From Planctomycetota bacterium (lineage in GTDB: Bacteria > Planctomycetota > UBA11346): a stretch of 64,000 nucleotides of DNA. The notes beneath the pieces were generated by a model that saw only the letters and a program-made list of their open reading frames with translations, searched no databases and had not been told where the DNA came from. The stretch's first letter is position 1. The number at the start of each line of letters is the position of its first letter. Location of the stretch: the NCBI GenBank assembly GCA_038213805.1, contig JBBQSO010000013.1:16980-80979 (forward strand), read 5' to 3'. The position numbers and the translations under genes are program-made. Shown in pieces: positions 8,304 to 63,916 of this stretch.

Positions 8304-8506
8304 GATGGTGGATGGTGGATGGTGGATGGTGGATGGTGGATGGTGGATGGTGGGTGGTGGGTGGCTGATGGCTGATGGCTGATGGCTGATGGCAGTGCGA
8401 ACGTCAGTGACGGTGCCGCACCTGCCAAAGGAGCCGGCATTGCGGCAGGGCCTTCCACCAGCGTCATGACCTCAGGACTTTCAGCCATCAGCCATCAGCC
8501 ATCAGC
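8304..8506. repeat. Heptamer array (GATGGTG/GATGGCT, 13 units) with inverted arm (TCAGCCA)n
   Basis: Left arm 8304-8394, right arm 8481-8506, unique spacer of about 86 bp. Confidence 0.95.
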
Positions 8507-8515
8507 CTCGCTGGT

Positions 8516-9001
8516 TCAGGTCTGTGGCAATCCCTGCGGCGGCGTATGCGGTGAGATGCCCTTGCCACGACAATCGGCGCACACCCCGTACAGTTCCATG
8601 CGGTGGTTGCCGAGCACGAAGCCAAAGCCCTTCGCGACCTCCTCCTGGAGATCCTCGATGCGCTCGTTGTGGAACTCCTGGATGCGACCGCAGCCGGTGC
8701 ACACCAGGTGGTCGTGGTGGTCTTTGTTGACCTCGAGTTCGAAGCTGGCCGAGCCTGGGGCGAACTGGCGCTTCGCGGCCACGCCCATCTCAACCAGCAT
8801 GTTGATGGTGCGGTAGACGGTGGCCGCGCTCACCGTGCGGTCGATGGCGCGCACGCGGTGGTGCAGGTCCTCGACGGTGATGTGCTGGTCGCAGATGATG
8901 AAGGTCTCGACGATCGACTGGCGTTGGGTGGTCCAACGCACGCCAAGGCGACGGGCCTCGTCGCGCACGCGGCGCAGGATGTCGACGGTCTGGACGGCCA
9001 T
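8516..9001 (-). CDS. fur: Fur-family transcriptional regulator
   Basis: TTQRQSI, ATVYRT, HHDHLVCTGCG, C-terminal CADC. Confidence 0.92.
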   Translation of the reverse strand: MAVQTVDILRRVRDEARRLGVRWTTQRQSIVETFIICDQHITVEDLHHRVRAIDRTVSAATVYRTINMLVEMGVAAKRQFAPGSASFELEVNKDHHDHLVCTGCGRIQEFHNERIEDLQEEVAKGFGFVLGNHRMELYGVCADCRGKGISPHTPPQGLPQT

Positions 9002-9072
9002 GCGCGCCAGGGTAGCGCCGCCGGGCCAGGAGCCAAGGGCAGTGACCTGGTCTTAGGCATGGGGTGGAGACG

Positions 9073-9148
9073 GCGGAGTGCGGAGTGCGGAGTGCGGAGT
9101 GCGAAGAGGCACACCGCTCGACCTTGGTTTCCAAGCACTCCGCACTCC
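9073..9148. repeat. Inverted heptamer pair (GCGGAGT)4 ... (GCACTCC)2
   Basis: Arms 9073-9100 and 9135-9148 between divergent fur and mdh. Confidence 0.9.
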
Positions 9149-9285
9149 CCACCAAGCCCGTCCCGGCCGCAACGATGTCTCCAGGCCACCGCCATCCATC
9201 CACCGGGAGCATACGGTGGCCTGGCCGCGATTCCCGGCTACCGTGCCGGCCCCCCGACGACCAAATCGCCCCTCACGAGGAACCC

Positions 9286-10272
9286 ATGCCCAAGCCCATC
9301 CGTGTTGCCGTGACCGGCGCTGCCGGTCAGATCTGCTACAGCCTGCTGCCGCGCATCGCGAGCGGCGACGTCTTCGGCAAGGACGTTCCGGTCATCCTGC
9401 AGCTGCTCGAGATCCCGATGGACAAGGCCCAGGCTGCACTGCGGGGCGTCTCGCTCGAACTCGACGACTGCGCATTCCCGCTGCTCCAGGACATGATCCT
9501 CACCGATCAGCCGGACGTCGCCTTCAAGGACGCCAATTGGGTACTGCTGGTCGGATCGAAGCCGCGCGGTCCCGGCCAGGAGCGCGCCGACCTGCTCAAG
9601 GACAACGGCCGCATCTTCATCGGCCAGGGCAAGTCGATCGACGCCGTCGCTGCCGACGACGCGCGCATCGCGGTGGTCGGCAACCCGTGCAACACCAACT
9701 GCATGATCGCCGCCCGCCAGGCCAAGCGCCTGCCCAAGGAGCGCTTCACCGCGATGGTGCGTCTCGACCAGAACCGCGCCGTGGGCCAGCTCGCCAAGAA
9801 GGCCGGCGTAGCGGTGACCACGGTGTCCGATGTGATCGTCTACGGCAACCACAGCCCGACCATGTTCCCCGACTTCGCGAACGCGAAGATCGGCGGCAAG
9901 CCCGCCACCCAGGTGATCAGCGATCACGCCTGGCTGCGCGACACCTTCATCCCCACGGTTGGCAAGCGCGGCGCCGAGATCATCGCGGCGCGCGGAGTGT
10001 CCAGCGCCGCGTCGGCCGCCAACGCGCTGATCGATCACGTCAAGGCGCTGACCACCGTCGGTCCCGCCCTGCACTCCATCGCCGTGTACAGCGACGGCTC
10101 CTACGGCTTCGCCGAAGGCATCTGGGCCGGCATGCCGGTGCGCACCACCGCGCCTGGCACCTACACCGTCGACAAGGGCTTCACCCACGACGAGTTCGCG
10201 AAGGCCAAGATCGCTGCAACCAACGCTGAGCTGGTCGGCGAGCGGGATCTGGTGAAGGAACTGCTGGTCTGA
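9286..10272 (+). CDS. mdh: Malate dehydrogenase
   Basis: [42 protein letters not shown]. Confidence 0.95.
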
Positions 10273-10280
10273 TTGCCCCC

Positions 10281-10349
10281 GTGCGGAGTGCGGAGAGCAG
10301 AGTGCCAGGTTGCGCTCCGGCTATCCGTACTCCGCACTCCGCACTCCGC
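10281..10349. repeat. Inverted heptamer pair (GTGCGGA)n ... (ACTCCGC)3
   Basis: Arms 10281-10305 and 10329-10349 between convergent mdh and the PIN gene. Confidence 0.85.
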
Positions 10350-10360
10350 ACCGTGGTCCA

Positions 10361-10765
10361 TCACACCAGCGGACAACCGTGTGGGGCCAGTACCTGCCAG
10401 TGCCGTTCCTGGCTCCAAATGCGGCCCTGGAGGCGTTCGGCGATGGCCCACATCAGCGCCTGCCAGGGGCTGGCGACCTGGCCTGTAGCACGCAGACGCT
10501 GGATGATGGCGGCGGCACGGGTGTGGTCGCGGCCGAGCATGGGCAGGTCGGGGAAGGCGGAAAGCACGTGGTTGAGGCGCACCCCCTGACGCGGGTCGCG
10601 GGTGCGCGCGAGCAGCGCCTGCCGCACCAATCCCAGGAGATAGACCTGACGGCCACGCACGCGCTGCGCGAAGCCATGGACGACCAGTGGATCGGGATCC
10701 TGACGGCTGAACGCCTTCAACCAGATGTCGACATCCGGAAGGATGAGTTCGAGCGCTTCGGACAT
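10361..10765 (-). CDS. vapC: PIN-domain VapC-like protein with degenerate active site
   Basis: ILPDVDIW start, PIN-like length and pattern, directly after a VapB-like gene. Confidence 0.75.
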   Translation of the reverse strand: MSEALELILPDVDIWLKAFSRQDPDPLVVHGFAQRVRGRQVYLLGLVRQALLARTRDPRQGVRLNHVLSAFPDLPMLGRDHTRAAAIIQRLRATGQVASPWQALMWAIAERLQGRIWSQERHWQVLAPHGCPLV

Positions 10766-10766
10766 G

Positions 10767-10964
10767 TTAAACCGGCGCCGCGGGGGCACCTTGGGCCTGG
10801 GCTGCGAAGTCGATGGTACCGAGGAAGTCGAGGGCCTTGAGCTGGCGGCGGTAGGTAATGGCCTCGGCCACCGCCGCGTCGACCGCCTCGCGCTTGCTCT
10901 TGAATCCGGCGATGCGCATGAGCTCTTCGATCGCCTGGGTATCCACGTCGAGATTGGTGGCCAT
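10767..10964 (-). CDS. vapB: VapB-family antitoxin
   Basis: MATNLDVDTQAIEELMRIAGFKSKREAVDAAVAE is a typical RHH-type VapB; 65 aa. Confidence 0.85.
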   Translation of the reverse strand: MATNLDVDTQAIEELMRIAGFKSKREAVDAAVAEAITYRRQLKALDFLGTIDFAAQAQGAPAAPV

Positions 10965-11144
10965 GAGTACGCACAATAGACTGTGCGACTCTGCCCGCAA
11001 GCGAGCAGTTACCTCTTGCCGGCTGAAGCACCAAGCGTCTGATTGTCTGACCTTCCTGAGATGGCAGCGCGAAATACGATGTGATCGGACATCTCGCGCA
11101 TCCTTCTCAGGCCTTATCGCACAGCTCAACGCACAAGGCCAGAC

Positions 11145-13934
11145 ATGAGTTCCGCCCCCAACGCCTTCGCCTCCGTGGCCAATCTCGCCCTTCTTGAGGA
11201 GCAGTATGGCAAATGGAAGGCTGATCCCGCCACGGTCGATCGCGATTGGCAGCTGTTCTTCACTGGCTTCGACCTCGGTTTCGAGCGGCCGGCCGCGGCC
11301 GGCGCCAGCGAGACCACCACCGACGCGCTCAGGATCCCCGGCCGGGTCGAACAGCAGCGCGCCGACACCTTGATCAACGCCTACCGCGTCTTCGGGCACA
11401 TGGTCGCCGACCTTGACCCGATCGGGATCAACAACACCAACATCGACAGCGTGCCCCACTTCCAGCTTGAGAGCGTTGGCCTGAGCGAGGCCGATCTCGA
11501 CCGGGTGTTCGCCTGCGACATCGTCTTCGGCCTCGCCCAACGCGACACCCTGCGCGCCATCATCGCCCACCTGCGCCCGACCTACTGCGGCAGCATCGGC
11601 GTCGAGCAGCACCACATCCAGGATCGCGAAGTGCGCCGCTGGCTGCACCGCGAGATCGAGACCCATCGCAACCAGCCGCAACTGACCAAAGAGGAGAAGC
11701 GCCGCATCCTGATGAAGGTCAACCAAGCAGAGATGCTGGAAAGCTTCATCCACACCAAGTTCCTTGGCCAGAAACGCTTCTCGCTTGAGGGTGGCGAAGC
11801 GCTCATCCCTTGCCTGGACGCCATCCTCGACCTCGCTCCCGAACTCGGCGCCAAGGAAGTGGTGATGGGCATGGCCCATCGCGGCCGTCTCAACGTGCTG
11901 TGCAACACTCTCAACAAATCCTATGAGGAGGTCTTCACCGAGTTCGAGGGCAGTTACGACCACACCGAACTGCAGGGTGATGGCGACGTGAAGTACCATC
12001 TCGGCTACAGCAGCGACTACACCAGCAGCAAGGGCGGCAAGCTGCACGTCACGCTCAACGCCAACCCCAGCCACCTGGAGGCGGTCGACCCGGTGGTGCT
12101 CGGTCGCGCGCGCGGCAAGCAGCGCCAGCACAACGATACCGTCGAGCGTGGCACGGTCATCCCCATTCTCATCCACGGCGACGCGGCCATGGCCGGTCAG
12201 GGCCTGGTCATGGAGGTCTTCCAGCTCAGCCAGCTCGAAGGCTACACCACCGGCGGCACCATCCACATCGTCACCAACAACCAGATCGGCTTCACCACCC
12301 TGCCGGCGGATGCGCGCTCAACACGCTACTGCACCGATATCGCCAAGATGGTCGATGCGCCGATCTTCCACGTCAACGGCGACGACGTCGAAGCGGTGGT
12401 GCACGTCACCAAGCTCGCCACGCGCTTCCGCCAGGAATTCAAGCGTGACGTGGTCATCGATATCGTCTGCTACCGCCGCCACGGCCACAACGAAACCGAC
12501 GAGCCCAATTTCACCCAGCCGACACTGTACGCGCGCATCGCCGAGCATCCGCGCATCAGCATGATCTACACCGCCAAGCTGCTCGAGCGCGGCGACATCG
12601 TGCAGACCGAGGCCGACGCCATCGCCACGATCTTCCAGAACCAGCTCCAGGACGCGCTCAATACCGTCAAGGTCAAGCCGGCCAAGCTCACGCGTAGCCG
12701 CTTCGGTGGCATCTGGCAGGGTCTGAGCAACCGCTACAGCCACGATCCGGTCGATACCGGCGTACCGCTCGAGACGCTCGACCTGGTCGGTAAGGCGCTC
12801 TCGACGTGGCCGGCAGCCTTCAACATCCACCCCAAGATCAAGCGCCTCGCCGAGGAGCGCGGGCGCGTGGTCCAGACGCGCGGGCGCGTCGACTGGGCGC
12901 TCGGCGAGCTGCTCGCGCTCGGCACGCTGCTCGCCGAGGGCACGCCGGCGCGACTCTCAGGCCAGGACTGCCGGCGTGGCACCTTCAGTCAACGCCATAG
13001 CATGTGGTACGACGTCGCGACGCGCGAGCGCTACAAACCGCTGGACCACGTTTCACCCAGCCAAGCCAAGCTCTGCGTCTACAACAGCCCGCTGTCCGAG
13101 GCGGCGGTGCTCGGCTTCGACTACGGGTATTCGCTGGCCGAGCCCAACATGCTCATCATCTGGGAAGCGCAGTTCGGCGACTTCGTCAACGGCGCACAGG
13201 TCATCATCGACCAGTTCATGGCCTCGAGCGAGAGCAAGTGGGGCCGTTCCTGCGGATTGGTGCTGATGCTGCCCCACGGCCAGGAGGGCGCCGGGCCGGA
13301 GCACAGCTCGGCGCGCCTTGAGCGCTTCCTGCAGAACTGCGCCGAGGACAACATGCAGGTCGCCTACTGCACCACCGCGGCCCAGCACTACCATATCCTA
13401 CGTCGGCAGATGCACCGCAAATTCCGCAAGCCGCTGATTTTGATGACCCCCAAGAGCCACCTGCGCTCGAAGCAGGCTTCGAGCGACATCCAGGATTTCG
13501 TCAGCGGACGTTTCCGCGAGATCCTTGTCGACCCCTCGCCGAAGAAGGCCAAGCGCGCGGTCATCTGCACTGGCAAGATCGCCCACGAGCTCAATGACCG
13601 GATTGCCGCCGACAAGCTCGAGGAGGTCGCGGTGGTACGCATCGAGCAACTCTACCCGCTCAACGAGACCCTGCTCAAGAAGACTCTCAAAGGGTTCGAT
13701 CCCGGCGTCGATTTCGTCTGGTGCCAGGAGGAGCCGCAGAACATGGGTGCCTGGACCTTCATCGAGCCGGCGCTGCGCCACCACCTTGGCAAGGAGTTCG
13801 CCTACGCGGGCCGCGAGGCCGCGGCCAGCCCTGCCCCAGGCAGCATGGGACTGTTCCTGGTCGAACAGGAACAGCTGATCTCGAGCGCGCTCGGCATTCC
13901 TGCGCGCAAACCCGTCAAGGGCGGCGCGCACTAG
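11145..13934 (+). CDS. sucA: 2-oxoglutarate dehydrogenase E1
   Basis: [51 protein letters not shown]. Confidence 0.97.
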
Positions 13935-13996
13935 GGGCGCAGGCCCTGGTGACGCCCACCCTATTCCCCCTCCATCAGCGAAGAACGGAACCTTCC

Positions 13997-15217
<1,221 letters not shown>

Positions 15218-15229
15218 GCCGAGCAGGAT

Positions 15230-15366
15230 CCGGAAGTCCGGAAGTCCGGAAGTCTTCAAGCCCCGGAAGCGCAGCGCGTACGGGGCGCCCCCCTCTCTAT
15301 GGGTCGCCCGCGACTCCATCCCACGAGACTCCCGGACTTCCGGACTTCCGGACTTCCGGACCCTCC
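15230..15366. repeat. Inverted octamer pair (CCGGAAGT)3 ... (GACTTCCG)n
   Basis: Arms 15230-15253 and 15327-15366 between sucB and lpdA. Confidence 0.92.
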
Positions 15367-15382
15367 CCCAAGGTTCCCAACC

Positions 15383-16798
15383 ATGTCCTCTTACGACCTG
15401 ATCATCATCGGCGCCGGTCCCGGCGGCTATGTGTGCGCGATCCGCGCGGCCCAGCTCGGCATGAAGGTGGCCATCGTCGAGAAGCGCGCCGAAGGGCCGA
15501 AGGTGCGGCTCGGCGGCACCTGTCTCAACGTCGGCTGCATCCCTTCGAAAGCGCTGCTCGACACCTCCGAGCACTTCGCCAACGCGAGCAAGCACTTCGC
15601 CGAGCACGGCATCGACGTCGGCAAGCCGGCGATCAACGTCGCGCAGATGCTGAAGCGCAAGGACAAGGTGGTCGGCACGCTGGTCGATGGCGTGTCCTTC
15701 CTGATGAAGAAGAACAAGATCGAGGTGCTGACCGGCGTCGGCGCGCTGAAGAGCGCGGGCGCGGTGACTGTCACCAGCCAGGACGGCAAGGCCGTGGAGC
15801 ACACCGCAAAGAACGTGGTGCTGGCGCTCGGCTCGGTACCGATCGAGCTGCCCTTCCTGAAGTACGACGGCGTCAGCGTGGTCTCGAGCGACCAGGCGAT
15901 CTCCTTCCCCAAGGTGCCGGAAAAGCTGCTGGTGGTCGGGGGTGGCGTGATCGGCCTGGAACTCGGCTCGGTGTGGTCGCGCCTCGGCAGCCAGGTCACG
16001 GTCATCGAGTTCCTGCCGCAGATCTGCCCGTTCCTGGACGCCGACGTCGCCAAGGAGCTGCAGAAGGTGCTGACCAAGCAGGGCATGGCCTTCCAGCTCG
16101 AGACCAAGGTCACCGGCGTGCGCCAGGTGGACGGCAAGCCGGTGCTCGACGCCACCGACAAGGACGGCAAGGCCGTGACCTTCACCGGTGACACCGTGCT
16201 GGTCGCGGTCGGCCGCAGACCATATATCGAGAGCAGCGGTCTGGAGGCCGCAGGCATCGCACTCACCGAGCGCAAGCGCGTCAAGGTCGACCACGACTTC
16301 CGCACCAACCTGCCGGGCGTCTACGCCATCGGCGACCTCATTGATGGCCCCATGCTGGCGCACAAGGCCGAGGAGGAAGGCTCAACGGTCGCGGAGATCA
16401 TCGCCGGGCAGAAGAACGTGCTCGACCACGATCTGATCCCCAATGTGGTCTACACTTGGCCGGAAATGGCCAGCGTCGGCCTGACCGAGGCCGATGCGAA
16501 GAAGCGCGGGCTGACGGTGAAGGTCGGCAAGGCGCTATTCATCGCCAACGGCCGCAGCAAGGCCGCCGGTGAGAACGATGGCTTCGTCAAGCTCATCGCC
16601 GATGCCAAGACCGACAAGGTACTGGGCGCCGCCATCCTCGGCCCGCGCGCCAGCGACCTGCTCGCCGAGATCACCGCGGTGATGGCCTTCGGCGGCGCCA
16701 GCGAGGACATCGCGCGCACCTGCCACTCGCACCCGACCTTCTCGGAGGTCGTGAAGGATGCGGCGCTGACGGTGCTGGGGCGGCCGATCAGTTCGTGA
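15383..16798 (+). CDS. lpdA: Dihydrolipoamide dehydrogenase E3
   Basis: GAGPGGY, GGTCLNVGCIPSK, GGGVIGLE, HSHPTFSE. Confidence 0.97.
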   Translation: MSSYDLIIIGAGPGGYVCAIRAAQLGMKVAIVEKRAEGPKVRLGGTCLNVGCIPSKALLDTSEHFANASKHFAEHGIDVGKPAINVAQMLKRKDKVVGTLVDGVSFLMKKNKIEVLTGVGALKSAGAVTVTSQDGKAVEHTAKNVVLALGSVPIELPFLKYDGVSVVSSDQAISFPKVPEKLLVVGGGVIGLELGSVWSRLGSQVTVIEFLPQICPFLDADVAKELQKVLTKQGMAFQLETKVTGVRQVDGKPVLDATDKDGKAVTFTGDTVLVAVGRRPYIESSGLEAAGIALTERKRVKVDHDFRTNLPGVYAIGDLIDGPMLAHKAEEEGSTVAEIIAGQKNVLDHDLIPNVVYTWPEMASVGLTEADAKKRGLTVKVGKALFIANGRSKAAGENDGFVKLIADAKTDKVLGAAILGPRASDLLAEITAVMAFGGASEDIARTCHSHPTFSEVVKDAALTVLGRPISS

Positions 16799-16802
16799 AC
16801 AG

Positions 16803-16836
16803 TCCGGAAATCCGGAGGTCCGGAGGTCCGGAAGTC
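16803..16836 (+). repeat. Solitary octamer array (TCCGGARR)4 just after lpdA
   Basis: tccggaaa tccggagg tccggagg tccggaag tc. Confidence 0.88.
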
Positions 16837-17005
16837 GCGTAGCGCGGGGTCGGAATCGCGATCGAGGCTTGCGGGGGACGCGAGCGTGCGCCCTGTTGCG
16901 CGGACGCTGGCAGACCGTCGGATCGGTGGTGGAACCGGCGGGGCCTGGCGCGAGGGTAAGGCTGCGACGGCGGGCAATGTCGGCGCGCGCAGCCACGAGG
17001 ACCGC

Positions 17006-19141: not shown

Positions 19142-19163
19142 CCTGGCGCGACAGATCGCACAC

Positions 19164-19463: not shown

Positions 19464-19545
19464 GTTGCAGAATTCCACACTCCGCTCATGCCATCCGAAG
19501 GCGCTTCCGTCTCAGCCCGCTGTTCCCATCGGCGGCACGCCCCCT

Positions 19546-21015
<1,470 letters not shown>

Positions 21016-21088
21016 GACGGGTTCTTCCTACTTTCTCGGCTGTTCTCGATGCGCGTCTGCGGACTATTTCATGGTCAAAGTCTTCTCC

Positions 21089-21114
21089 GACTTCTGGACT
21101 TCCGGACCTCCGGA

Positions 21115-21117
<3 letters not shown>
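21089..21117 (-). repeat. Solitary octamer array overlapping the DUF1553 stop codon
   Basis: gacttctg gacttccg gacctccg gacta. Confidence 0.85.
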
Positions 21118-23328
<2,211 letters not shown>

Positions 23329-24982: not shown

Positions 24983-25112
24983 GTCCGGAAGTCCGGAGGT
25001 CCGGAAGTCCGGAAGTCGACACCCGCTCGCGCAACGCCGATCCGCAGCACGGGCACCTGCAAACGCGCCAGCGTCCCGACTTCCGGACTCCCGGACCTCC
25101 GGACTTCCGGAC
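24983..25112. repeat. Inverted octamer pair
   Basis: Arms 24983-25017 and 25078-25112. Confidence 0.92.
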
Positions 25113-25579: not shown

Positions 25580-25616
25580 GACTTCCGGACTTCCGGACCT
25601 CCGCACTTCCGGACCC
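25580..25616 (-). repeat. Solitary octamer array just after the HisG-like gene
   Basis: gacttccg gacttccg gacctccg cacttccg gaccc. Confidence 0.88.
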
Positions 25617-25620: not shown

Positions 25621-26802
25621 TCACACCAGCCTCGCGCCAAGCTTCTCGCGCAGCTTCGCGCGCCACGCCGGGGTGTGGTCGGCGTCGGTGACCGGCGCCA
25701 GGCACTCGACCAAGCGGCCGATGGCGGCGTTGTGGTTGAGACGCTCCTGGTTGACCGCGACGATGGTCTCGGAGGTGATGATCTCATCGCCGACCACGCA
25801 CAGTTCGGGCATGCACGCCACGGTCGAGCCGCTGCGCACGATGTAGATGCCGATGCGGCCCTGTTCGGCGCAGACCTTCTCGATGTCCTTGGGGCCGACC
25901 TCGAAGGTGATGCCAAGCGCGCGCGCGTCGAGTATGCAGGTGTAGAGCTCTTCATACTGCGGGTCGATCAGCACCGGCTGGCCGCGCAGCAGCGCGAGCT
26001 TGGGATCGCTGCCGTCGGTGGCCCAGCGCCGCCCGCCACCCAGGGCCGTGGCCTTGGCCGCGGTGGCGCGGTCCATCAGCACGCAGTGCCCGAGGTAGTC
26101 GTCCAGGCCGAGGCTGCCGAGGATGCGCACGTCGGTGTTGGTCTCGATGAGGTGGCTCTTGAGCTCCTTCCAGTTGCGCACCTTCGGCGTGTCGAGCGCG
26201 TCGAGCAGGGTGTTGTGGAAGGCGTCGTAGCAGGTCAGCGAGAGGTCGCGCTTGTGCTTGCGCAGGTAGGTCGGCGTGACCTCGTGGTCGGTGCCGAGCA
26301 GCACCCCGCGCACCGCGCAGGTCGCGCCCGGCGGGGTGTAGTCGAACTCGAGCTGGTTGAAGACCATGCGGCTGGGTTTTCCCGGCCGCGTCAGGTCGAG
26401 CTGCAGGTGCATGCTGAGCGCCGCCTCGCTGACCTCGTGATCAAGGTCGTAGCGCAGCTTGTTGAGCATCAGCTCGACGCCGCTCTTGCCGGTGTAGTCG
26501 AGCTGGGTCTTGCCGGACCCGTCCTGATAGCGGCGCATGCGCTTGAGCGCCTGGTCAATCTCGTCGAGGTCGTGGCCGAAGCGGTCGGCGGCGCGCATCG
26601 TCGATTCGACGGCATAGCCGCTGCTCTGCCACAGCTGGATGAGACCCTCCTCAAGCTTGACGCGGCGCTTGTCCTCCTTGATCAGACGGCGCAGCGCCGC
26701 GACCAGTTCGGGGCGCAGCCAGCCCAGGGCGACGAGCCGCTTCAGCACATCGTCGAAGCTGCCCCCCTTGGGTGGGATGGCGACCAGCACCGGTTCGGAC
26801 AT
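25621..26802 (-). CDS. Divergent ATP phosphoribosyltransferase (HisG)-like protein with large insertion
   Basis: VAIPPKG, DLSLTCYD, IE...IYIVRSGSTV, EIITSETIVAVN align with HisG motifs. Confidence 0.6.
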   Translation of the reverse strand: MSEPVLVAIPPKGGSFDDVLKRLVALGWLRPELVAALRRLIKEDKRRVKLEEGLIQLWQSSGYAVESTMRAADRFGHDLDEIDQALKRMRRYQDGSGKTQLDYTGKSGVELMLNKLRYDLDHEVSEAALSMHLQLDLTRPGKPSRMVFNQLEFDYTPPGATCAVRGVLLGTDHEVTPTYLRKHKRDLSLTCYDAFHNTLLDALDTPKVRNWKELKSHLIETNTDVRILGSLGLDDYLGHCVLMDRATAAKATALGGGRRWATDGSDPKLALLRGQPVLIDPQYEELYTCILDARALGITFEVGPKDIEKVCAEQGRIGIYIVRSGSTVACMPELCVVGDEIITSETIVAVNQERLNHNAAIGRLVECLAPVTDADHTPAWRAKLREKLGARLV

Positions 26803-40186: not shown

Positions 40187-40353
40187 CGGAGGTCCGGAAG
40201 TCCGGGGGTCCGGAAGTCCGGAAGTCTCGTCTGGCGGCAACTCCGCTGGGACCGACGTCTGCATCCGCAGACCTGCTGCCTGCGCGCTGCCCTCTGATCC
40301 ACGGCTGGCCGCCGACTTCCGGACTTCCGGACCCCCGGACTTCCGGACTTCCC
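40187..40353. repeat. Inverted octamer pair with five units per arm
   Basis: Arms 40187-40226 and 40314-40353 between divergent bioF and pdxJ. Confidence 0.93.
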
Positions 40354-41157: not shown

Positions 41158-41173
41158 CTGGTGAAGGTACGGG

Positions 41174-41307
41174 GTGCGGAGTGCGGAGTGCGGAGTGCGG
41201 GAGGAGAGCCAAACCGTTGTAGCCACATCCGCCTGGAGCGCCCCTGAGAGCGGGAAACAGCCCCTCAAGCCGGCCACTCCGCACTCCGCACTCCGCACCC
41301 GCACCCC
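41174..41307. repeat. Inverted heptamer pair (GTGCGGA)n ... (CACTCCG)n
   Basis: Arms 41174-41200 and 41275-41307 between pdxJ and dapA. Confidence 0.92.
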
Positions 41308-44130: not shown

Positions 44131-44244
44131 AGCGCCTCGGAAAGGCGCATGCGGAACATCGGATCGCTCGACCCTGCCACCTGACTTTGCGTTCGCGATC
44201 CGCTCGCCCATCGCAAAGTACCGATGCCGTGTACATGGCATCGA

Positions 44245-44629
44245 GAGCGCCAACGGCGCGACCAGAGGACCAGCCCAGGGCGAAGCCCTGGGTAGTGCAA
44301 AAAAAAATATTTCCGAGCCCTGAAGGGGCGGTTCATATCAATCGGCGCTAGGGAAGAACGAGCACTTGCGAGCGTATTCTCGGGACATGAAACGCTCGAA
44401 GACACAGCACCTCGCTGGTAAGGTGCAGCGCCATTGGCCGCCCCTTCAGGGCTCTCGCATCATTTTTTCCCATGTTCCCAGGGCGTTGCCCTGGGCTGGT
44501 CCTCTGGTCGCGCCGTTGGCGCTCAAGGCAGACGGCTTGCTGGCAACGCGGTTCCCGGCTGACCCGGAATTGTGGGCAATCCACAGGGCAACGCCCTGGG
44601 CTGGTTCTCTGGCCGCGCCGTTGGCACTC
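44245..44629. mobile_element. REPIN/MITE-like element: about 87-bp imperfect inverted arms plus a third partial copy
   Basis: 44245-44331 is the reverse complement of 44438-44524; internal CCCAGGGC-N4-GCCCTGGG hairpins; partial copy 44581-44629. Confidence 0.75.
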
Positions 44630-47185: not shown

Positions 47186-47357
47186 GCGCCGGATGCCTGC
47201 ACATCTCCGCAGGCCGCCCATTGAATCAACCCAGCGACGCTTGGGCCTTCCCTGAAACCGCGCGCCGCTGGCGCGCTCGCGGACCACTGCGCGCCTGCGG
47301 CGCGCGGTCCCAGGATGGATCCTCACGTCCTGAGGTGACGATCTGGTGCCTCACGCC

Positions 47358-51449: not shown

Positions 51450-51459
51450 GGGTCGGAAG

Positions 51460-51661
51460 GTCCGGAAGTCCGGGGTCCGGAAGTCCGGAAGTCTTGGAGC
51501 GCGATGGCCACTCCGCTAGCGGAGTGGCGCCTGTCTCGGCGTGCGGCCGATGTGCGCATGCACCCGACCATCTCACCGTCGTCGCCTCAGCTCGTCAGGT
51601 TGCCGCTCGTGACCTGGGACCCCTCGACTTCCGGACTTCCGGACTTCCGGACCTCCGGACT
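51460..51661. repeat. Inverted octamer pair enclosing a 10-bp palindrome
   Basis: Arms about 51460-51493 and 51626-51661; GCCACTCCGC-TA-GCGGAGTGGC at 51507-51528. Confidence 0.9.
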
Positions 51662-51818
51662 GTGGCCGGCCCCACTGGCCACCGCCGCAGCACTTTCCCG
51701 CTGTTCGCCCCTTGTCTGGCCGCTCAAACTTTTATCATACCGCTCCTCTGTGGATCAAATGCTTACCAAGTAAACATGCTTGGTTAGATTTTGGTCAGCT
51801 TTCCGAACCAGCGAGCCC

Positions 51819-53315
<1,497 letters not shown>

Positions 53316-53369
53316 GCGACGGCGTCCGGGCCTTCCGTACCTGGCCGGCCCCCCTATCGTCATCCCGCC

Positions 53370-56618: not shown

Positions 56619-56647
56619 TCGCGAGTCTCGGATCTCAGGCCCGAAGC

Positions 56648-57313
56648 CTACCCCTTCCGCCCATCCGTCCGCGTCGCCCGCTGCTCGCGCCGCCAGCGCG
56701 CGATCGCCTCGTGGTCGCCGGAGAGCAGGGCTGCGGGCACCTCGAGGTCGCGGAACTCGCGCGGCCGGGTGTAGCAGGGATGATCGAGGTCGCCGGCGCC
56801 AGCGAAGCTGTCGCTCAGCGCGCTTTCCTCGTTGCCGAGCGCACCCGGCTGCAGGCGGGTGACCGCGTCGACCAGGATCAGCGCGGCGAGTTCGCCGCCG
56901 GAGATCACCAGGTCGCCGATCGAGAAGGGCTCGGGGCGGTAAAGCTCGACGATGCGCTCGTCGATGCCCTCGTAGTGGCCGCACAGCACGATCAAATGCT
57001 GCTCCTGGGCGAGACTGGCGATGCGGCCCTGGTCGAGGCGGCGGCCCTGCGGCGAGGTCAGCAGCACGCGCGGCGCCGCGCTCTGCGCCATCAGGTGGTC
57101 GAGCGCCCCGGCGAGCGGCGGCGCCATCATCACCATGCCCGGCCCACCGCCGAACGGCCGGTCGTCGACCTTGCGATGCCGCCCGCCTGCCCAGCCGCGC
57201 GGATCGACCGCCTCGACCGCGATCAGTCCGCGCCGCCGCGCCCGCCCGACAATGCTGGCATCGAGGTAGCCGCGGCAGACATCGGGGAAGAGCGTGACCA
57301 GATCGATGCGCAT
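56648..57313 (-). CDS. trmD: tRNA (guanine37-N1)-methyltransferase
   Basis: [46 protein letters not shown]. Confidence 0.96.
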
Positions 57314-57580
57314 GGAGGGACCGGGAGGATGGTGGGGGAAGGCAAGTATGGAGAGGTGCGAGGGGCGCGTGATGGTTTACGGCACGGTGAAGGGACTAGG
57401 AAAACGTGCGATCATCACCCACCCGACTGTACCCCGTCCCCGAGCGGAAACGCAAGGGCTCGCGTGGTGCCCGAGCGCTGTGGACAGCCTGTCTGGCAGG
57501 TCACCAACCGCCACCGCCAGGGCGCTGCCGGTCTCACGTCGCGCGTCCCTTCACCATCTTGTTGGCCCATGCCCTCACCC

Positions 57581-57973
57581 TCACCAATCCTCCACCCTGG
57601 TCTTTGTTGCGAAATACACCTCGCCGACGCCCGCATGGCGCAGTGCGTCTACAACCTCGACGACCCGGCCGTGGCGCGCCTGGGTGTCGGCGAGCACGGT
57701 GGCGCGGGTGGCGCCGCCGACCAAGGCGGCGAGATCCTTGAGCTGGAGCGGGCGGCCGCGGCAGGTGAGGGCGCCGCCGGCGTCGATGACCACCTCCAGG
57801 GGTGCCGCTGCGGCCGCATCGGCGGTGCCGGCGGCGGGCAGCGCCACCGGCAGGGTGCGCATCTCAATGGTCTGACTGGTGAGCACGAAGAACACCACCA
57901 GCACCAGCGCGATGTCGACCAGCGAGGTGAAGTCGAGGGTGCCGGGCTGGCGGGAGTGGCGGCGGCGCAGCAT
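57581..57973 (-). CDS. exbD: ExbD/TolR-family protein
   Basis: TSLVDIALVLVVFF, VALP, AD...HGRVVEVVD.LR.AG. Confidence 0.88.
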   Translation of the reverse strand: MLRRRHSRQPGTLDFTSLVDIALVLVVFFVLTSQTIEMRTLPVALPAAGTADAAAAAPLEVVIDAGGALTCRGRPLQLKDLAALVGGATRATVLADTQARHGRVVEVVDALRHAGVGEVYFATKTRVEDW

Positions 57974-58623
57974 CACCCCGCCGCCGGGCGCAGCGCGCCG
58001 ATGAAAGCCGGCAGGTCGGCGGCGCCATTCTCGAGCTCGTCGATGAGGCGGTTGCTGACCCCGGACAGCAGGCTGTACGCGACGTAGGAGGTGATCGCCA
58101 CGACCAGACCCGCGACGGTGGCGCCCAAGGCCTGGCCGATGCCGGCCGCTACCGCGCCCGTGGCGAGCGCTGCCGCCGGGCTGGTGGGAGCGGTGGCGCT
58201 GCCGCCGACGTTCTGGAAGACCTCCATCAGGCCGACCACGGTCCCCATCAGGCCGAGCCACGGCGCGACCTGGGCTGCGATCTGGATCACGCCCAGGCCG
58301 CGCTCGATCCCCGCGACCTCGCGCTGGGCGCAGGCGCGCGCGGCGAGGTGCATGGTCTCCGGCCCGCGCTCCTGGGCGAGCAGGCCGGCGCGCAGTACCC
58401 GGGACATGGCGTCATCGCCGGACATCCCGGCCAGGGCCTGCGCCGGGCCGGCGCGCAGCAGCGCCTCGTTGCACGCGTCGCGTACCGCGGCGAAGCGCCG
58501 GCGCAGCGGCAGCAGGCGCCAGGCGCGCTCGATGGCGATGGTCAACGCCGCGAGCGAGACCAGGGCGATGAGCGCGACGGTCAGGCCGCCATGCTCGATG
58601 ATGTGTCGCAGGACGGCGATCAT
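57973..58623 (-). CDS. exbB: MotA/TolQ/ExbB proton-channel protein
   Basis: APWLGLMGTVVGLM, GIGQALGATVAGLVVAI. Confidence 0.88.
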   Translation of the reverse strand: MIAVLRHIIEHGGLTVALIALVSLAALTIAIERAWRLLPLRRRFAAVRDACNEALLRAGPAQALAGMSGDDAMSRVLRAGLLAQERGPETMHLAARACAQREVAGIERGLGVIQIAAQVAPWLGLMGTVVGLMEVFQNVGGSATAPTSPAAALATGAVAAGIGQALGATVAGLVVAITSYVAYSLLSGVSNRLIDELENGAADLPAFIGALRPAAG

Positions 58624-58860
58624 GGCCACGGGCTCCGGACAGGGTGCTGGGGATGCCGGCTCGGCGGCGTGCCGGCCCGGCGTCCTCTGCGGCAGCGTTG
58701 GGCGGAACCAGGAAATGCTCCACATTTTCCGCGCGGCGGCCAGGCGCCGGGCCGAAGCGTCGGGTACGCCGGCACCCGCCTGTCCAGGACCAGATCCGGG
58801 CGGGACAGGGCCGGGGACGCGTGCGATTGATTCCGGCGGCGCGATGGTCTAGAGTCGGGC

Positions 58861-59343
58861 ATGGTCGAAAGCGCGTCCTCGTCAGGCATCATCACGGCCG
58901 AACTGGTGCCGGTGCTGGTGGGCACCGCCGGACTGGTCGACGGCGAGTGCTTCCTGCTCGACAAGGGCATCGATGTGATCATCGGGCGCAGCCGCTCCTG
59001 CGACATCAGTCTGCGGCGCACCACCGCGTACCTCAAGACCCCAGCCCTGGCGCGCGACGGCGACCACGACTTCAACACCGTCAGTCGCCGCCATCTGCGC
59101 ATCCAGGTCACCGGCACCATCGCCGCGATCAACGACCTCTCGACCAACGGCACCTTCTTCAATGGCGAGCCGATGCGCGAACCCCAGCGCGTCGATCTCA
59201 GCCTCGGCAGCTGCAACCTGCGCCTGGGCACGCGCGAGTGCTTCCAGCTCGCCCTGCTGCCCAAGGATGACCCGCGGGTCCGCGACCTGCAGCCGGTCAG
59301 CAGCATGGCCAAAGAAGCAGAGACCGACCCGCGCGAGCTCTGA
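58861..59343 (+). CDS. FHA-domain protein
   Basis: IIGRS, VSRRH, DLSTNGT. Confidence 0.88.
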   Translation: MVESASSSGIITAELVPVLVGTAGLVDGECFLLDKGIDVIIGRSRSCDISLRRTTAYLKTPALARDGDHDFNTVSRRHLRIQVTGTIAAINDLSTNGTFFNGEPMREPQRVDLSLGSCNLRLGTRECFQLALLPKDDPRVRDLQPVSSMAKEAETDPREL

Positions 59344-59375
59344 TCCGGCAGCGGCCCGCAGGCTGCCGCCAGCGA

Positions 59376-59392
59376 TTGGCCCGGCGTGTGCG
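59376..59392 (+). promoter_or_regulatory. Sigma54 promoter for fliK
   Basis: TTGGCCCGGCGTGTGCG with exact GG-N10-GC spacing. Confidence 0.65.
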
Positions 59393-59417
59393 TTCCTCCC
59401 CAGTACGGAGGACCGTC

Positions 59418-60983
59418 ATGCAATCGGCCACCTTGCCTGAGATCATCGCCCCGCGCCCCCCTGAGCCCGCCCGTAGCGGTGCCCGCGCCGACGCGTCCGA
59501 GAGCCCATTCTCCACCACGTTGGAGCAGGTGCACCACGACCAGGCGCGCACCGCCAAGCCCGCCCAGGACGATCCCGCCAGGCCATCAGACCAGGCGTCG
59601 AAGCCGGACCGCGGTACGCCTGAAGATGCTCCGGACACCGCGAAAACCGGCTCCCCAGCCGCCACGGGCGACAAGCTGGCACCGGCCAGACCAGGCAAGG
59701 ACGACAGCACCGATCAGGCACCCGCCGATCCCACCGTGCCGGTCATCCTGCCGATTGATCCCGCCCTGCCAGCGATCCCGGTGGAGGTCGCAGTGGTTGT
59801 GGCGGCAAATCCCCAGCCCCTCCCACAAGTCCTTCCGGATGCCGTGGACCTTGGCAATGCGCTGCCCGTGACCACCCAGGGGCAGGGGCAGGGGCAGGGG
59901 CAGGTCCCGCTCCCTCTGCTGACACCCGACCAAGCGCCATCATTGGCATCCACGACCACAAGCCTCACCATCGGGCTGCCGCCCGCGGCGTCCCAGGCGG
60001 CGCTCGCCGCGCAGTTGGCGACCCTAGCTAAGGCCGGCAAGGACCGCGGTCCCGCCACCCCGGTGGCCACGGAGGCCAGCGCCGCCACCACTCCGGGAAC
60101 AAGTGCCACCGCGCCAGCGGATGCCAGCCTGCTCGCAACGCTTGCTGTCACAGCCGGCACCAACGCGCCGGTCAAGGATGCCAAGGACGACAAGGCCGCG
60201 ACGGTGACGGACGCAAGCAGCGTCGATGGGGGCGCAGCGGCGGCGACCGCCGCCATCCCCCTCCCCACCCCGGTGGTGAACGCGGCAAGTGCGCCGGCGG
60301 CCCGGATCCAGGCCTCGGCGATCACGCTGGGAGACAAGGCCAGGAAGGCCGCACCCGACAGCGGCACGAAAACCAGCGAACCCGCGGCCGCCAAAAGCGG
60401 CAGTGCCTTCGACAGCCTGATCCAGCAGCAGGGCGCCACCACCACGCCGGCTGCGCCCACTGCGCCGGTGCAGCGTCCGCTCTCCGAGACCATCGCTGCG
60501 CAGGACGCGCTCGCGGCCGCCGGCAACGCCGCCGAGAAGGCGGTCTCACAGCAGGTCGGCAAAGCGCTGGTGCAGACCCTGCCCGGCGGCGACAAGATGA
60601 TGGTGCTGCGCCTGACGCCGCCCGAGCTCGGCACGGTGCGCATCGAGGTGGTCGAACACCAGGGCGTGCTGAGCGCCCGTCTGCACGCCGAGGACGATGG
60701 CGTGCGCGTGGCGCTCGAACGATTCCTGCCGCAGATGCAGCGCGATTTGCGCGCGCAGGACGCGCCCATCCAAGAGATCACACTCTCGGATCAGACGCAG
60801 TTCGACCGTTCCTTCGCCGACACCTCGCGCCAGCCGCGTGACCAGGACAGCGGTGCGCGCAGCGGCCGCGACGATGGTCCGGCCTTCACGGTCGATGGTG
60901 CAGCGCGCAGCGACGAGCCGAACGGCGTGACGCGCAGTCTCGGCGGGCGCAGCAACGCGCGCGGGGTCGATGCATTCGCGTGA
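59418..60983 (+). CDS. fliK: Flagellar hook-length control protein
   Basis: GGAGG RBS; long A/P/T-rich region; C-terminal LRLTPPELGTVRIEV. Confidence 0.9.
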   Translation: MQSATLPEIIAPRPPEPARSGARADASESPFSTTLEQVHHDQARTAKPAQDDPARPSDQASKPDRGTPEDAPDTAKTGSPAATGDKLAPARPGKDDSTDQAPADPTVPVILPIDPALPAIPVEVAVVVAANPQPLPQVLPDAVDLGNALPVTTQGQGQGQGQVPLPLLTPDQAPSLASTTTSLTIGLPPAASQAALAAQLATLAKAGKDRGPATPVATEASAATTPGTSATAPADASLLATLAVTAGTNAPVKDAKDDKAATVTDASSVDGGAAAATAAIPLPTPVVNAASAPAARIQASAITLGDKARKAAPDSGTKTSEPAAAKSGSAFDSLIQQQGATTTPAAPTAPVQRPLSETIAAQDALAAAGNAAEKAVSQQVGKALVQTLPGGDKMMVLRLTPPELGTVRIEVVEHQGVLSARLHAEDDGVRVALERFLPQMQRDLRAQDAPIQEITLSDQTQFDRSFADTSRQPRDQDSGARSGRDDGPAFTVDGAARSDEPNGVTRSLGGRSNARGVDAFA

Positions 60984-61002
60984 GGCGGCGCTTTTGCGCC
61001 GC

Positions 61003-61162
61003 AGACCCTAGACCCTAGACCCTAGACCCTAGACCCTAGACCCTAGACCCTAGGTAGGCTGACCTACGCTGCGTCCTCGTTATATGCCGAGATTTCCCGT
61101 GGATTCTCCATTTCTGCACACCGCGGCGACCTGCCTTCACTAGGGTCTAGGGTCTAGGGTCT
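61003..61162. repeat. Inverted heptamer pair (AGACCCT)7 ... (AGGGTCT)3
   Basis: Arms 61003-61051 and 61142-61162; preceded by a GCGGCGC-TTTT-GCGCCGC hairpin at 60985-61002. Confidence 0.95.
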
Positions 61163-61177
61163 TCAATCAAAAAAAAA

Positions 61178-61194
61178 TTGGCACGGAATCAGCG
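61178..61194 (+). promoter_or_regulatory. Sigma54 promoter for flgE
   Basis: TTGGCACGGAATCAGCG with GG-N10-GC spacing, preceded by an A-tract. Confidence 0.75.
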
Positions 61195-61260
61195 TTACAG
61201 CTTCGACGAACCCACCCCCGCGGCCAACGCCGCCCCGCCGCGCCCCCAGGAGTCACCGCC

Positions 61261-63867
61261 ATGGCCTTGCTGCAAGCTCTCACGACCGGCGTCACCGGCA
61301 TGATCAACCACCAGTTGATCCTCGACACCACGGCCAACAACTTGGCCAACGTCAACACCCCTGGATTCAAGTCCAGCCGCGTCGACTTCGCGACCTCGCT
61401 GAACCAGACCAACTTCGGTGGCTCGGCCCCGACCAGCATCGACGGCGGCCGCAATCCCGAGCAGCTCGGCCTAGGTGTGACCACCGGCGCGGTCGACGTC
61501 GATTTCAGCCAGGGCTCGTTGCAGTCGACCGGACGCAACTTCGACCTCGCCATCTCCGGAAGAGGCTTCTTCCAGATGGCGCGCGTCGACTCGACCGGCA
61601 ACGCCACCGAGTCATTCTTCAGCCGCGTTGGCAATCTCACCTTCGACAAGGACAACAACCTGGTCGACCAGAGCACCGGCCTGAAGGTGCTGGGCAAGCA
61701 GACCGACCCGGCCGGAACCACGCTCGGCAACCTCATCCCGATCAACACCACCGACAACCAGTCGCTCGACGCGGTGCAGACCAAGGTGGTGAATTTCCAG
61801 GGCAATCTCAGCTCCGCGGCCGGCGCCCTGCAGGGCCCGTCGCTGACCACCGCCTTTCCGCTGCTCGCGGTCGATCCGAACAACAACTCGTCGGTCGCGA
61901 ACGAGAACACCGTGCTCAGCCAGACCCAGGCTTTCAATCTCAACAGCGGACTGACCCCGTTCACCATCCCAGCGAGCCCCGACCGCACGATCTACGTGGT
62001 CGGCACCAAGCCCAACGGCGATTCGTATGCCGGTCAGTTCGACATCAACCCCTGGACCAACACCGTCCAGGACCTGATGAACAGCATCAACACCGTGTTC
62101 AGCCAGGGCAACAACGTCTTCGGACAGGTGACGCTGAGCAACGGCGTGATGACTGCCGCGGGCATCGGTGACGGCAAGGGCTTCTCGCTGTTCCTGGGCG
62201 AACGCAATCCCATCCAGGGCACCGCCAACCTGCCCGCGGTCGGCGCCACGCCGGCAGGGGCGAACGGCGGACCCACCAGCACCGTCAACGCGACCACCAC
62301 GCAATTCGCCAGTTTCACCTCGACGGTGGCCGACGCGGGCGCCTACGATCCGACCTTCACCATCAATGGCACGGTGACGACCAGCAGCCCGATCACCATC
62401 AAGGTCAAGGTCGGTGGCGTCGCCGTGCAGTCGCTGACCTTGCAGCCCGCCACTTACAACAACGGGCAGACCTTCCAGCTGCCCAGCTTCCCCAACGTCA
62501 AGCCGAACGACGCGGTGACCTATGAGGTGGTGGGGCCGGCGATCGGCAACAACCTGACCTTCGACTTCGCCACGGTCTCGCACGGGCTCGACGATGCGAC
62601 GGGCGTCAGCTATTCGGGCGTGGGCGTCGCGCGCACCATCGGCAGCCACACCGTCCAGGCCGGAGAGGCCGGGCTCCTCCAGCCGACCTTCACCATCCCC
62701 GCCGACACCTACGGCGGCGCGAACGGCACCTTGCGCGTGGCGGTGAAGATCAACGGCGTCGAGGTCGGTACCATCACGCCTACCGGTGTGCTCGCCGCGC
62801 CGACCGCGTTCAGCCTCAGCAGCTACCCGCACGTCAAGGTCGGCGATGTCGTCAGCTACGAAGTTTCGGGCAACAAGGCGACCGCCGCACCGATCACCAC
62901 CGCCACCCAGATCGTCGCCGACAACAACAGCAGCAACCTCACCTCCGACACCGACGCCGACGGCATTCCGGACATGTTCCAGAGCGGCAGCTCGACCGAC
63001 ATCAACGCCTGGCAGTATGAGAAGGCCTCGAACGCGACCATGGACTGGTACCGCATCCGCTTCTCGCCGGCCTGGGTGACGAGTTCGATCCCGGTGTTCG
63101 ACAAGAACGGTGGCAGCCACATCCTGCAGGCCGCCTTCCTGCGCACCGGCACGGAATCGACCACCCAGAACGGCCTGACCTCGGTGACCAACGACTGGGA
63201 CATGCTGCTCAACGTCAAGCCCGAGGACGGGCAGATGGTCGACGACCTGGTGGCGGGCGTGAAGTTCGACGACAAGGGCCGGTTCAAGGGCGCCGCCAAC
63301 CTCGGCTCGACCGCGCACGGCACGGCGATCTCCGACTCCAACATCTACGTCGGCACCCCGATCGACAACTCGATCCGGGTCAACTGGCGCACCACGGGCA
63401 CCTCGGTCATGAACATGGACCTGGGCACGGCCAACAGCACCAACGGCCTGACCGGCTTCGGCACCGGCTCGACCGCGGCCGCGATCAACCAGGACGGCAA
63501 CGCCAACGGCGCGCTGGCCTCGCTGTCGGTCAGCCCGAACGGCAACATCATCGGCCTGTATTCGAACGGCAAGAGCGTGCCGCTCTACCAGGTCCAGGTC
63601 GCCACCTTCGCCAATCCGGGCGGTCTGACCAACTCGGGCAACAACCTCTGGCAGGTGTCATCGAACTCGGGCGACCCCATCGTCCGCCAGCCCGGCACCG
63701 CCGGGTCGGGCGCGATCACCGCCGGCGCCCTTGAGGGTAGCAATGTCGACATCGCCAGCGAGTTCACCCGACTGATCACCGCCCAGCGCGGCTTCCAGGT
63801 CAACGCCCGCGTCATCCAGACCGCGGATAGCATCCTGCAGGAGCTGGCGGGGCTGATTCATGGCTGA
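61261..63867 (+). CDS. flgE: Flagellar hook protein, unusually long (868 aa)
   Basis: ANNLANVNTPGFK, DLAISGRGFF, ALEGSNVD, LITAQRGFQVNAR. Confidence 0.93.
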   Translation: MALLQALTTGVTGMINHQLILDTTANNLANVNTPGFKSSRVDFATSLNQTNFGGSAPTSIDGGRNPEQLGLGVTTGAVDVDFSQGSLQSTGRNFDLAISGRGFFQMARVDSTGNATESFFSRVGNLTFDKDNNLVDQSTGLKVLGKQTDPAGTTLGNLIPINTTDNQSLDAVQTKVVNFQGNLSSAAGALQGPSLTTAFPLLAVDPNNNSSVANENTVLSQTQAFNLNSGLTPFTIPASPDRTIYVVGTKPNGDSYAGQFDINPWTNTVQDLMNSINTVFSQGNNVFGQVTLSNGVMTAAGIGDGKGFSLFLGERNPIQGTANLPAVGATPAGANGGPTSTVNATTTQFASFTSTVADAGAYDPTFTINGTVTTSSPITIKVKVGGVAVQSLTLQPATYNNGQTFQLPSFPNVKPNDAVTYEVVGPAIGNNLTFDFATVSHGLDDATGVSYSGVGVARTIGSHTVQAGEAGLLQPTFTIPADTYGGANGTLRVAVKINGVEVGTITPTGVLAAPTAFSLSSYPHVKVGDVVSYEVSGNKATAAPITTATQIVADNNSSNLTSDTDADGIPDMFQSGSSTDINAWQYEKASNATMDWYRIRFSPAWVTSSIPVFDKNGGSHILQAAFLRTGTESTTQNGLTSVTNDWDMLLNVKPEDGQMVDDLVAGVKFDDKGRFKGAANLGSTAHGTAISDSNIYVGTPIDNSIRVNWRTTGTSVMNMDLGTANSTNGLTGFGTGSTAAAINQDGNANGALASLSVSPNGNIIGLYSNGKSVPLYQVQVATFANPGGLTNSGNNLWQVSSNSGDPIVRQPGTAGSGAITAGALEGSNVDIASEFTRLITAQRGFQVNARVIQTADSILQELAGLIHG

Positions 63868-63916
63868 TGGCTGATGGCTGATGGCTGATGGCTGATGGCT
63901 GATGGCTGATGGCTGA
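63860..63916 (+). repeat. (ATGGCTG)8 array starting within the flgE 3' end
   Basis: Eight perfect units; the flgE TGA (63865-63867) lies at the first unit junction. Confidence 0.95.

Follow-up and report, generated by a model that had tools for sequence, protein, structure and literature searches.

What are the short tandem repeats that face each other in opposite orientation, across a piece of unique DNA, between the genes of this planctomycetotal genome, and how did they come to be there? The window analyzed here is the whole stretch of 64,000 nucleotides at the end of contig C13 of an assembly of 5.5 Mb (69% GC, 90% complete, referred to as G000) in which small-subunit rRNA was not found. 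The domains encoded in the window include some of planctomycete type. It contains 13 arrays of period 7 or 8 with at least three copies, characteristically organized as a lead arm, a spacer and a trail arm carrying the reverse complement of the lead unit. Every array named in the initial annotation was recovered, at the same position or a few bases from it, and the arrays are well beyond chance, with none appearing in any of 30 order-5 Markov simulations of 64 kb. An origin by chance or misassembly has a negligible probability in our estimation: the assembly is fragmented, 21 arms touch contig ends and array lengths may be misassembled, but the simulations are empty and the same units occur at the same sites in separately assembled relatives whose spacers have diverged.

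The explanation we favor, with a probability of roughly 55%, is a four-helix-bundle-linked insertion family with a REPtron/REPIN-like organization, tandem-repeat arms and a gene of the intervening sequence (IVS) type. The arm-spacer-arm units are lineage-specific inserts just behind stop codons that are gained, lost and swapped between related species. The roughly 200 inserts probably belong, as its gene-less members, to a poorly described mobile family; in the rare full form, the same arms enclose a PF05635/TIGR02436 gene. What was directly observed is the layout, the polarity, the turnover, two copies with a gene and the joint occurrence of arrays and gene family.

To describe the layout across the genome, we used gene boundaries from our own codon-model gene caller (4009 genes), by which 508 of 556 arrays are intergenic. 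A more sensitive scan for four unit families yielded 644 arms and 207 pairs no more than 450 nt apart (CCGGAAGT, 97; GATGGCT, 62; AGACCCT, 26; GCGGAGT, 22), with a median spacer length of 84 nt (quartiles 72–105 nt). Neighbors of the same family within 250 nt were ordered lead-then-trail in 204 of 208 cases and trail-then-lead in none, and of 294 arms lying between −12 and 30 nt from a stop codon, 287 had their lead form on the mRNA strand, so that the inverted pairing and stop-codon polarity first noticed in the window are genuine features of the genome. Measured from the outer arm edge, the median distance is 7 nt to a stop (n = 216) and 69 nt to a start (n = 162), the distances to starts being less certain because the boundaries are our own codon-model calls. 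In tandem gaps the element is closer to the upstream stop than to the downstream start in 101 of 116 cases. Polarity and closeness to stops partly follow from the pair layout and the room needed by a ribosome site, yet unpaired arms show them too, as 96 of the 109 with an outer edge toward a stop lie within 30 nt of it. The inserts rewrite gene ends: 55 lead arms overlap or provide the stop codon, and one gene-bearing cassette replaced a host start codon. As the initial annotation had it, tandem, convergent and divergent gaps are all used, although divergent gaps hold fewer pairs than their number would suggest (23 of the 189 pairs that were classed, versus 596 of 2109 gaps of at least 100 nt).

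The arms have a fixed phase. Those of the CCGGAAGT family end on the inner side with GAAGTC in 125 of 190 cases and start with GTCCGG or AGTCCG in 155 of 190; the arm ends found are GTCCGG, GGCTGA, AGACCC and GTGCGG. The four unit families had been described as unrelated, but GCGGAGT and CCGGAAGT are one indel and one substitution apart, and an intermediate 8-mer array was found in the relative G010. The proposal that the G-rich form stands on the mRNA strand is correct for three families and fails for AGACCCT because its lead arm is C-rich.

Four-helix-bundle genes and their arms

Five PF05635 genes are present in G000, and the three that were scanned were all confirmed as TIGR02436, the 23S-IVS protein family. 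Locus L001, within an ABC-transporter operon, has such a gene flanked by GATGGCT arms, and at L005 another lies between CCGGAAGT arms at guaB-guaA (the names guaB, guaA, moxR, DUF58 and rtcB are our reading of the peptides and not tool output). Both genes are inside inverted repeats flanked by protein genes, not within a 23S rRNA gene, and at both a word similar to GAC[AG]GC follows the arm. The initial annotation had suggested looking for loci where the same arms flank a whole gene, and of the three options that it listed, the link to a cargo-carrying element is the one borne out, by these two together with the gaps in relatives that are empty or hold other cassettes. The arms of gene-less pairs thus enclose a gene at two of the five PF05635 loci; a third, L004, is armed by a further unit. 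None of the window's own elements contains a PF05635 gene, and gene-less units outnumber gene-bearing ones by about 100 to 1. When the 260-nt flanks of 32 PF05635 loci in G000 and its relatives were examined by eye, complementary arrays stood on both sides at 12, an array on a single side or units that did not match at nine, and no array at 10, with one locus giving no hit. Separately, L002, L003 and L004 (contigs C6, C9 and C115) form a second four-helix-bundle group with a common GC-rich hairpin ahead of the gene, and their arrays are absent, one-sided or of reversed polarity. The closed genome G026 (C1) has 52 PF05635 matches, many with the same stop pattern, which represent a burst of copies followed by decay.

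To determine whether the arrays travel with the gene family, we compared 48 genomes of the bacterial family, which are incomplete and related to one another. Arrays were detected by the summed matches to one degenerate 7-periodic pattern and its reversed form, which also detects arrays, at a threshold of 10 matches that we set ourselves; this pattern misses other units. Arrays were present in 24 of 30 genomes with PF05635 and in 5 of 18 without (odds ratio 10.4, p = 0.0006, with kin not independent). Among the same genomes, no association was detected for Y1/RAYT genes (10 of 14 versus 19 of 34, p = 0.35) or for GxxExxY genes (13 of 22 versus 16 of 26, p = 1.0), in searches with stricter E-value cut-offs than that for PF05635. 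G004 has no PF05635 gene and no array in 431,541 bases.

These comparisons bear on whether the elements are REPIN-like units moved by resident RAYT (Y1) transposases, which we judge very improbable. The inverted doublet, the less conserved spacer and the singlet remnants all recall REPINs (PMC3116915; here and below, comparisons draw on parts of the cited papers), and G000 has five Y1 matches, at least three of them with inverted arms. In the four of these five that were viewed, however, no tandem-array arms were seen; the arms of RAYT genes here are palindromic, unlike the arrays, the arm ends of the arrays carry no GTAG or CGTC tag, and the co-occurrence is lacking. RAYT-like genes with long palindromic inverted arms lie directly behind host genes at L223, L224 and L226 (C48, C97 and C70). 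The sole GxxExxY gene of G000 (PF13366, L162, C28:59099-59443) has inverted 8-mer-like arms and lies behind an rtcB-like gene; gene-less pairs with similar arms are common in the relative G003.

Turnover between species and origin of the spacers

A 1.25-Mb sample of the ~4.6 Mb of G003 contained the orthologous gap for 53 pairs. Eleven of these gaps were empty, 11 held the same unit, 21 other repeats, nine no repeat and one a long insert, and spacers could be aligned in 5 of 49 cases versus 97 of 146 control gaps. For G010 we compared 287 kb in 41 stretches with a flank identity of 93%; as 40 of these are contigs chosen for holding arrays, gains in G010 are over-counted. Among 162 gaps, 93 were plain, 26 held the same unit with alignable and four with non-alignable spacers, nine showed a swap of units, 15 had the element in one genome only, seven shared other repeats and eight were one-sided. 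Empty sites, as the initial annotation had proposed to seek, therefore do exist in relatives. At shared-unit sites of G000 and G010 the spacer was inherited in 10 of 17 cases, and inherited spacers differ at 26% of columns versus 15% in plain gaps, in a small sample and to a degree that lack of selection could explain.

The clearest junction is that of the L001 cassette, which is absent in G010, G003, G007 and G002. In its place G010 has a 28-nt stretch from the stop codon to the sixth codon of the next gene. In G000 the arm starts at that TGA, the host start codon has been replaced and the cassette provides a new one, with the trail arm translated as the N terminus of the next gene. No target duplication is present at this one clean junction, the other empty sites being too diverged. 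At L043, L054 and L237, as at L001, the trail arm falls within the downstream reading frame, so that its translation extends the protein at the N terminus.

A second informative site is a cassette at moxR-DUF58, the proteins of which are 50–85% identical in G002, G009, G007 and G018; the G000 site is empty. Its arms are GTCCGAT in G002 and G009, GTCCGGG in G007 and GTCGCGGG in G018, and in each species both arms match, i.e. they have changed together. These proteins form a supported clade (100/99) with those of L005, L244 and L041 in which all lead units contain GTC, a link that is suggestive only, as some units from beyond the clade contain GTC too and labels are shared among kin. Four species thus offer matched protein-unit pairs with three different units at one orthologous cassette, and cognate binding is directly testable because the relatives supply such pairs. 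A metagenome scan found no close strain, the best match having 87% protein identity.

The same data can be set against the view that the elements are host-beneficial RNA stems, slippage-prone 7/8-mers kept for RNase III processing or mRNA stability, with the gene merely riding along. Eight window elements have long predicted stems of −46 to −124 kcal/mol (folded without a shuffle control), the elements sit behind stops, both arms change together, the Xanthomonas repeats discussed below are mostly transcribed (PMC4692102) and the stem of the Coxiella IVS is cut by RNase III (PMC4990558). Against this, even where flanks are 93% identical there are sites without the element or with another unit, G004 lives without arrays, elements are found in convergent and divergent gaps as well, and the specific co-occurrence with PF05635 would be left unexplained. 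On balance we regard a host role of this kind as unlikely.

To understand where the spacers come from, we compared them with each other and with host and cassette DNA. A short piece is shared with another spacer in 22 of 207, mostly nested repeats, and the spacers are otherwise single-copy. They keep the host dinucleotide signature (TA odds 0.38, AT 1.35), by which random synthesis is ruled out, but are not coding-like, so that host coding sequence was also rejected as a source, as were copies of the local 1-kb flanks, to which they have no likeness. Spacer ends pair no better with each other than with the ends of other spacers, the spacer alone folds weakly (mean z −0.6), and neither arm length nor the inner motif gave a direction within the element. 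Seven lineage-specific spacers from G000 match only their own site; among eight from G010, one matches the orthologous site and one a repeat elsewhere. In a comparison made with CRISPR-like spacer acquisition in mind, two spacer 20-mers had no exact match in viral contigs, nor had one arm word. Spacers that resemble host DNA, encode nothing, do not derive from cassettes and have no sibling copies make copy-and-paste of whole units unlikely.

A stricter version of the initial annotation's "scars" would have every pair as a former gene-bearing cassette from which the gene was deleted. At guaB-guaA, G000 and G010 hold the full cassette and G007 a gene-less GTCCGAT pair with a loop of ~10 nt, the first bases of which match the leader start of GTCCGAT cassettes. 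The motif GAC[AG]GC, similar to the word at L001 and L005, stands at the inner end of 57 of 193 spacers versus 7 of 316 mid-spacer windows. In contrast, none of 193 spacers scores above 5 bits with the four-helix-bundle profile (2 of 965 shuffles do), there is no DNA likeness to cassette interiors, a ribosome site with a start is in no excess (57 of 193 versus 64 when shuffled), spacer lengths fall in a narrow range and lineage-specific elements are already gene-less. With no trace of cargo gene or leader in the spacers and arm ends that keep a fixed phase, general scarring appears distinctly unlikely. What the initial annotation had called a shared generating process is supported by the common layout, the cargo-enclosing arms and the state of the gaps in relatives.

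Two observations concern the genes upstream of the elements. Hypermutation of gene ends was rejected, the apparent signal not being significant with proper controls. Between G000 and G003, synonymous divergence in genes upstream of arms is ~15% in the gene body and ~27% in the last 30 codons, and ~24–27% throughout in genes ahead of plain gaps; the rise ahead of arms may reflect recombination tracts or relaxed codon bias.

Published repeats and the preferred reading

The nearest published match is not one of the analogues first named, STRR and REP/REPIN, but the GGGAATC heptamer of Xanthomonas (Rehm et al. 2015, PMC4692102), which forms intergenic arrays of ~4 units in convergent inverted pairs (70 in Xcc, 75 in Xac) with the lead form on the sense strand up to 50 bp past the stop. 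Tandem heptamers, convergent pairing and a lead form close behind stops are common to both systems, so that the gene-less layout and its stop polarity are already published. Xanthomonas has one unit prone to form G-quadruplexes and mostly the same gene context in two species, whereas the present genome uses four main units, 7 or 8 bases long, one of which leads with its C-rich strand, and the elements turn over fast; by sequence, the three G-rich lead units have GG at most. The Xanthomonas repeats are described as generally not associated with mobile elements, and neither "helix bundle" nor "xcc0516" was found in the text of that paper, supplements being outside the search.

The gene-bearing form has its precedent in the ORF-bearing 23S rRNA IVS (S23p, Coxiella; PMC4990558), where the same protein family is encoded within a stem-loop, heptameric direct repeats lie upstream of the open reading frame (ORF) and the distribution is patchy. 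Those IVS lie in rRNA and are excised by RNase III; the elements here lie between protein genes and both arms are tandem arrays. The REPIN and REPtron/TIRtron logic is likewise published (PMC3116915, PMC3733652), and several of its features recur here: gene-less doublets in large numbers, a handful of gene-bearing copies that share their ends, remnant singlets, and an inverted doublet with a preferred spacing that is predicted to form a hairpin. REPINs and REPtrons are built from tagged palindromes with an HUH transposase, in contrast to the tandem 7/8-mers here, which enclose a gene other than an HUH transposase and have no RAYT link. TAACTGA repeats of Beggiatoaceae (PMC4679880) are abundant oriented intergenic heptamer arrays with units containing stop codons, but are mostly unpaired, point to start codons and have no cargo gene described in that source. 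Miniature inverted-repeat transposable elements have a multi-copy internal sequence, whereas the spacers here are unique, and retroelements, including diversity-generating ones, have a reverse transcriptase partner, for which PF00078 gave no match in G000 (90% complete); the Avd model scored 27.7 versus a cut-off of 80. Abundant oriented intergenic heptamer arrays with units containing stop codons are also known from cyanobacteria as short tandemly repeated repetitive sequences (STRR).

A literature search covering few subscription papers and no supplements found no report that links a four-helix-bundle gene with tandem-repeat arms. The present work adds a site-by-site record of swaps, a clean junction, one orthologous cassette at which both arms changed unit in concert, controls for the co-occurrence and a set of negative results on where the spacers come from. 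Two loose ends meet in this system, the unexplained excess of 7-base repeats in bacteria and a large protein family for which a ring structure has been solved but no function is known.

In the four-helix-bundle-linked insertion family that we prefer, the transcript or single-stranded DNA is predicted to form a stem of 25–40 bp by pairing of the arms, leaving the middle as a loop, an arrangement that would resemble that of the ORF-bearing 23S IVS. The four-helix-bundle protein may recognize its cognate repeat and act in trans in making or keeping the arms, by analogy with RAYT and REPINs. The arms would be the replicated part, each event enclosing a new piece of host-like non-coding DNA, and entry would replace a few bases after the stop codon with no target duplication.

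Several observations weigh against this reading. Tolerance of inserts near stops may account for part of their position there, and the gaps may simply be hot spots, as GxxExxY and RAYT cassettes occupy the same gaps with other arms. Ten of the 32 PF05635 loci have no array nearby, and no cassette was found in G000 for AGACCCT or GCGGAGT units (a genome 90% complete with 21 arms at contig ends). G039 is a clear exception: it has the most array matches of the family (4316), and at the cut-offs applied neither a four-helix-bundle gene nor a GxxExxY or Y1 gene was detected in it; G051, G001 and G006 have fewer arrays and likewise no detectable PF05635 gene (completeness range 61–79%). The spacers have no siblings, so no parent-daughter pair has been caught. 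Some cassettes have persisted for long and been passed on vertically, a history that suits a domesticated gene no less than a mobile one, and the only solved relative of the protein, 2GSC, described as a homopentameric ring (PMC4990558), is uncharacterized and has no known catalytic activity.

A bolder reading is a new class of bacterial mobile DNA in which Avd-like pentamers, each tuned to its own 7/8-base word, would direct the construction of mirror-image arms on newly captured DNA and its insertion at the stop codon of an expressed gene. If true, it would account for the bacterial heptamer-repeat excess and give the 23S-IVS protein family a function. We put this class forward as a tentative possibility.

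Elements of the window

The elements of the 64-kb window are as follows.

8303..8507: pair between tRNA-Phe and the fur stop; the lead arm (8303-8393) is GATGGTG/GATGGCT and the trail arm (8481-8507) AGCCATC, around a unique spacer
9073..9148: pair with GCGGAGT arms in the divergent fur-mdh gap, the right arm of only ~2 units
10281..10351: pair with GCGGAGT arms and an 18-nt loop, 8 nt past the mdh stop
15229..15372: pair with CCGGAAGT arms between the 2-oxoacid dehydrogenase E2 and E3 genes
16801..16836, strand +: unpaired CCGGAAGT lead arm, 2 nt past the E3 gene stop; a downstream partner was not found
20957..21116: mixed pair at the DUF1553-DUF1501 junction, GCGGAGT arm 20957-20985 and CCGGAAGT arm 21089-21116
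24983..25112: pair with CCGGAAGT arms upstream of a NUDIX gene
25580..25614, strand −: unpaired CCGGAAGT arm, 6 nt past the stop of gene 25621-26802
40187..40353: pair with CCGGAAGT arms in the divergent gap ahead of pdxJ
41170..41307: pair with GCGGAGT arms between pdxJ and dapA
51454..51661: pair with CCGGAAGT arms, 4 nt past the aspS stop
61003..61162: pair with AGACCCT arms past a fliK-like gene
63860..63916, strand +: GATGGCT lead arm that provides the TGA stop of gene 61261-63867; its partner may lie past the contig end

Four arms had been labeled solitary. Those at 16803 and 25580 are indeed unpaired, the arm at 21089 faces the GCGGAGT arm of the mixed pair, and the label cannot be judged for the arm at 63860 because the contig ends 84 nt away. 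The pair at 9073-9148 is present as described, although its right arm is short. Rfam matches in the window are to tRNA only.

The same gaps were compared in relatives. The gap at 8303..8507 holds the same unit family in G003 and no element in G004. In the fur-mdh gap there is a degenerate pair in G003, none in G002, G004 or G007, and a different insert in G005 (L080), ~150 nt long with terminal inverted repeats. The site past mdh has an AGACCCT-type element in G003, and G004 lacks the gap. Between E2 and E3, G003 and G007 have a GxxExxY cassette and G002 and G004 a short plain gap. The element at 24983..25112 is missing from G004 and G005 and that at 40187..40353 from G004. The pdxJ-dapA gap contains a four-helix-bundle cassette with AGGGGCT arms in G005 and inverted 9-mer arrays in G007, and is plain in G002 and G004. 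Past aspS there are GGGACTC arrays in G007, a small ORF in G002 and no element in G004.

Directly after the last GATGGCT arm, positions 63917-63963 form a perfect 22-bp inverted repeat with a 3-nt loop, and other GATGGCT spacers contain similar hairpins. A dispersed repeat of ~90 nt occurs at 44237-44331, 44436-44524 and 47242-47329 and has many 77–82% matches in G003.

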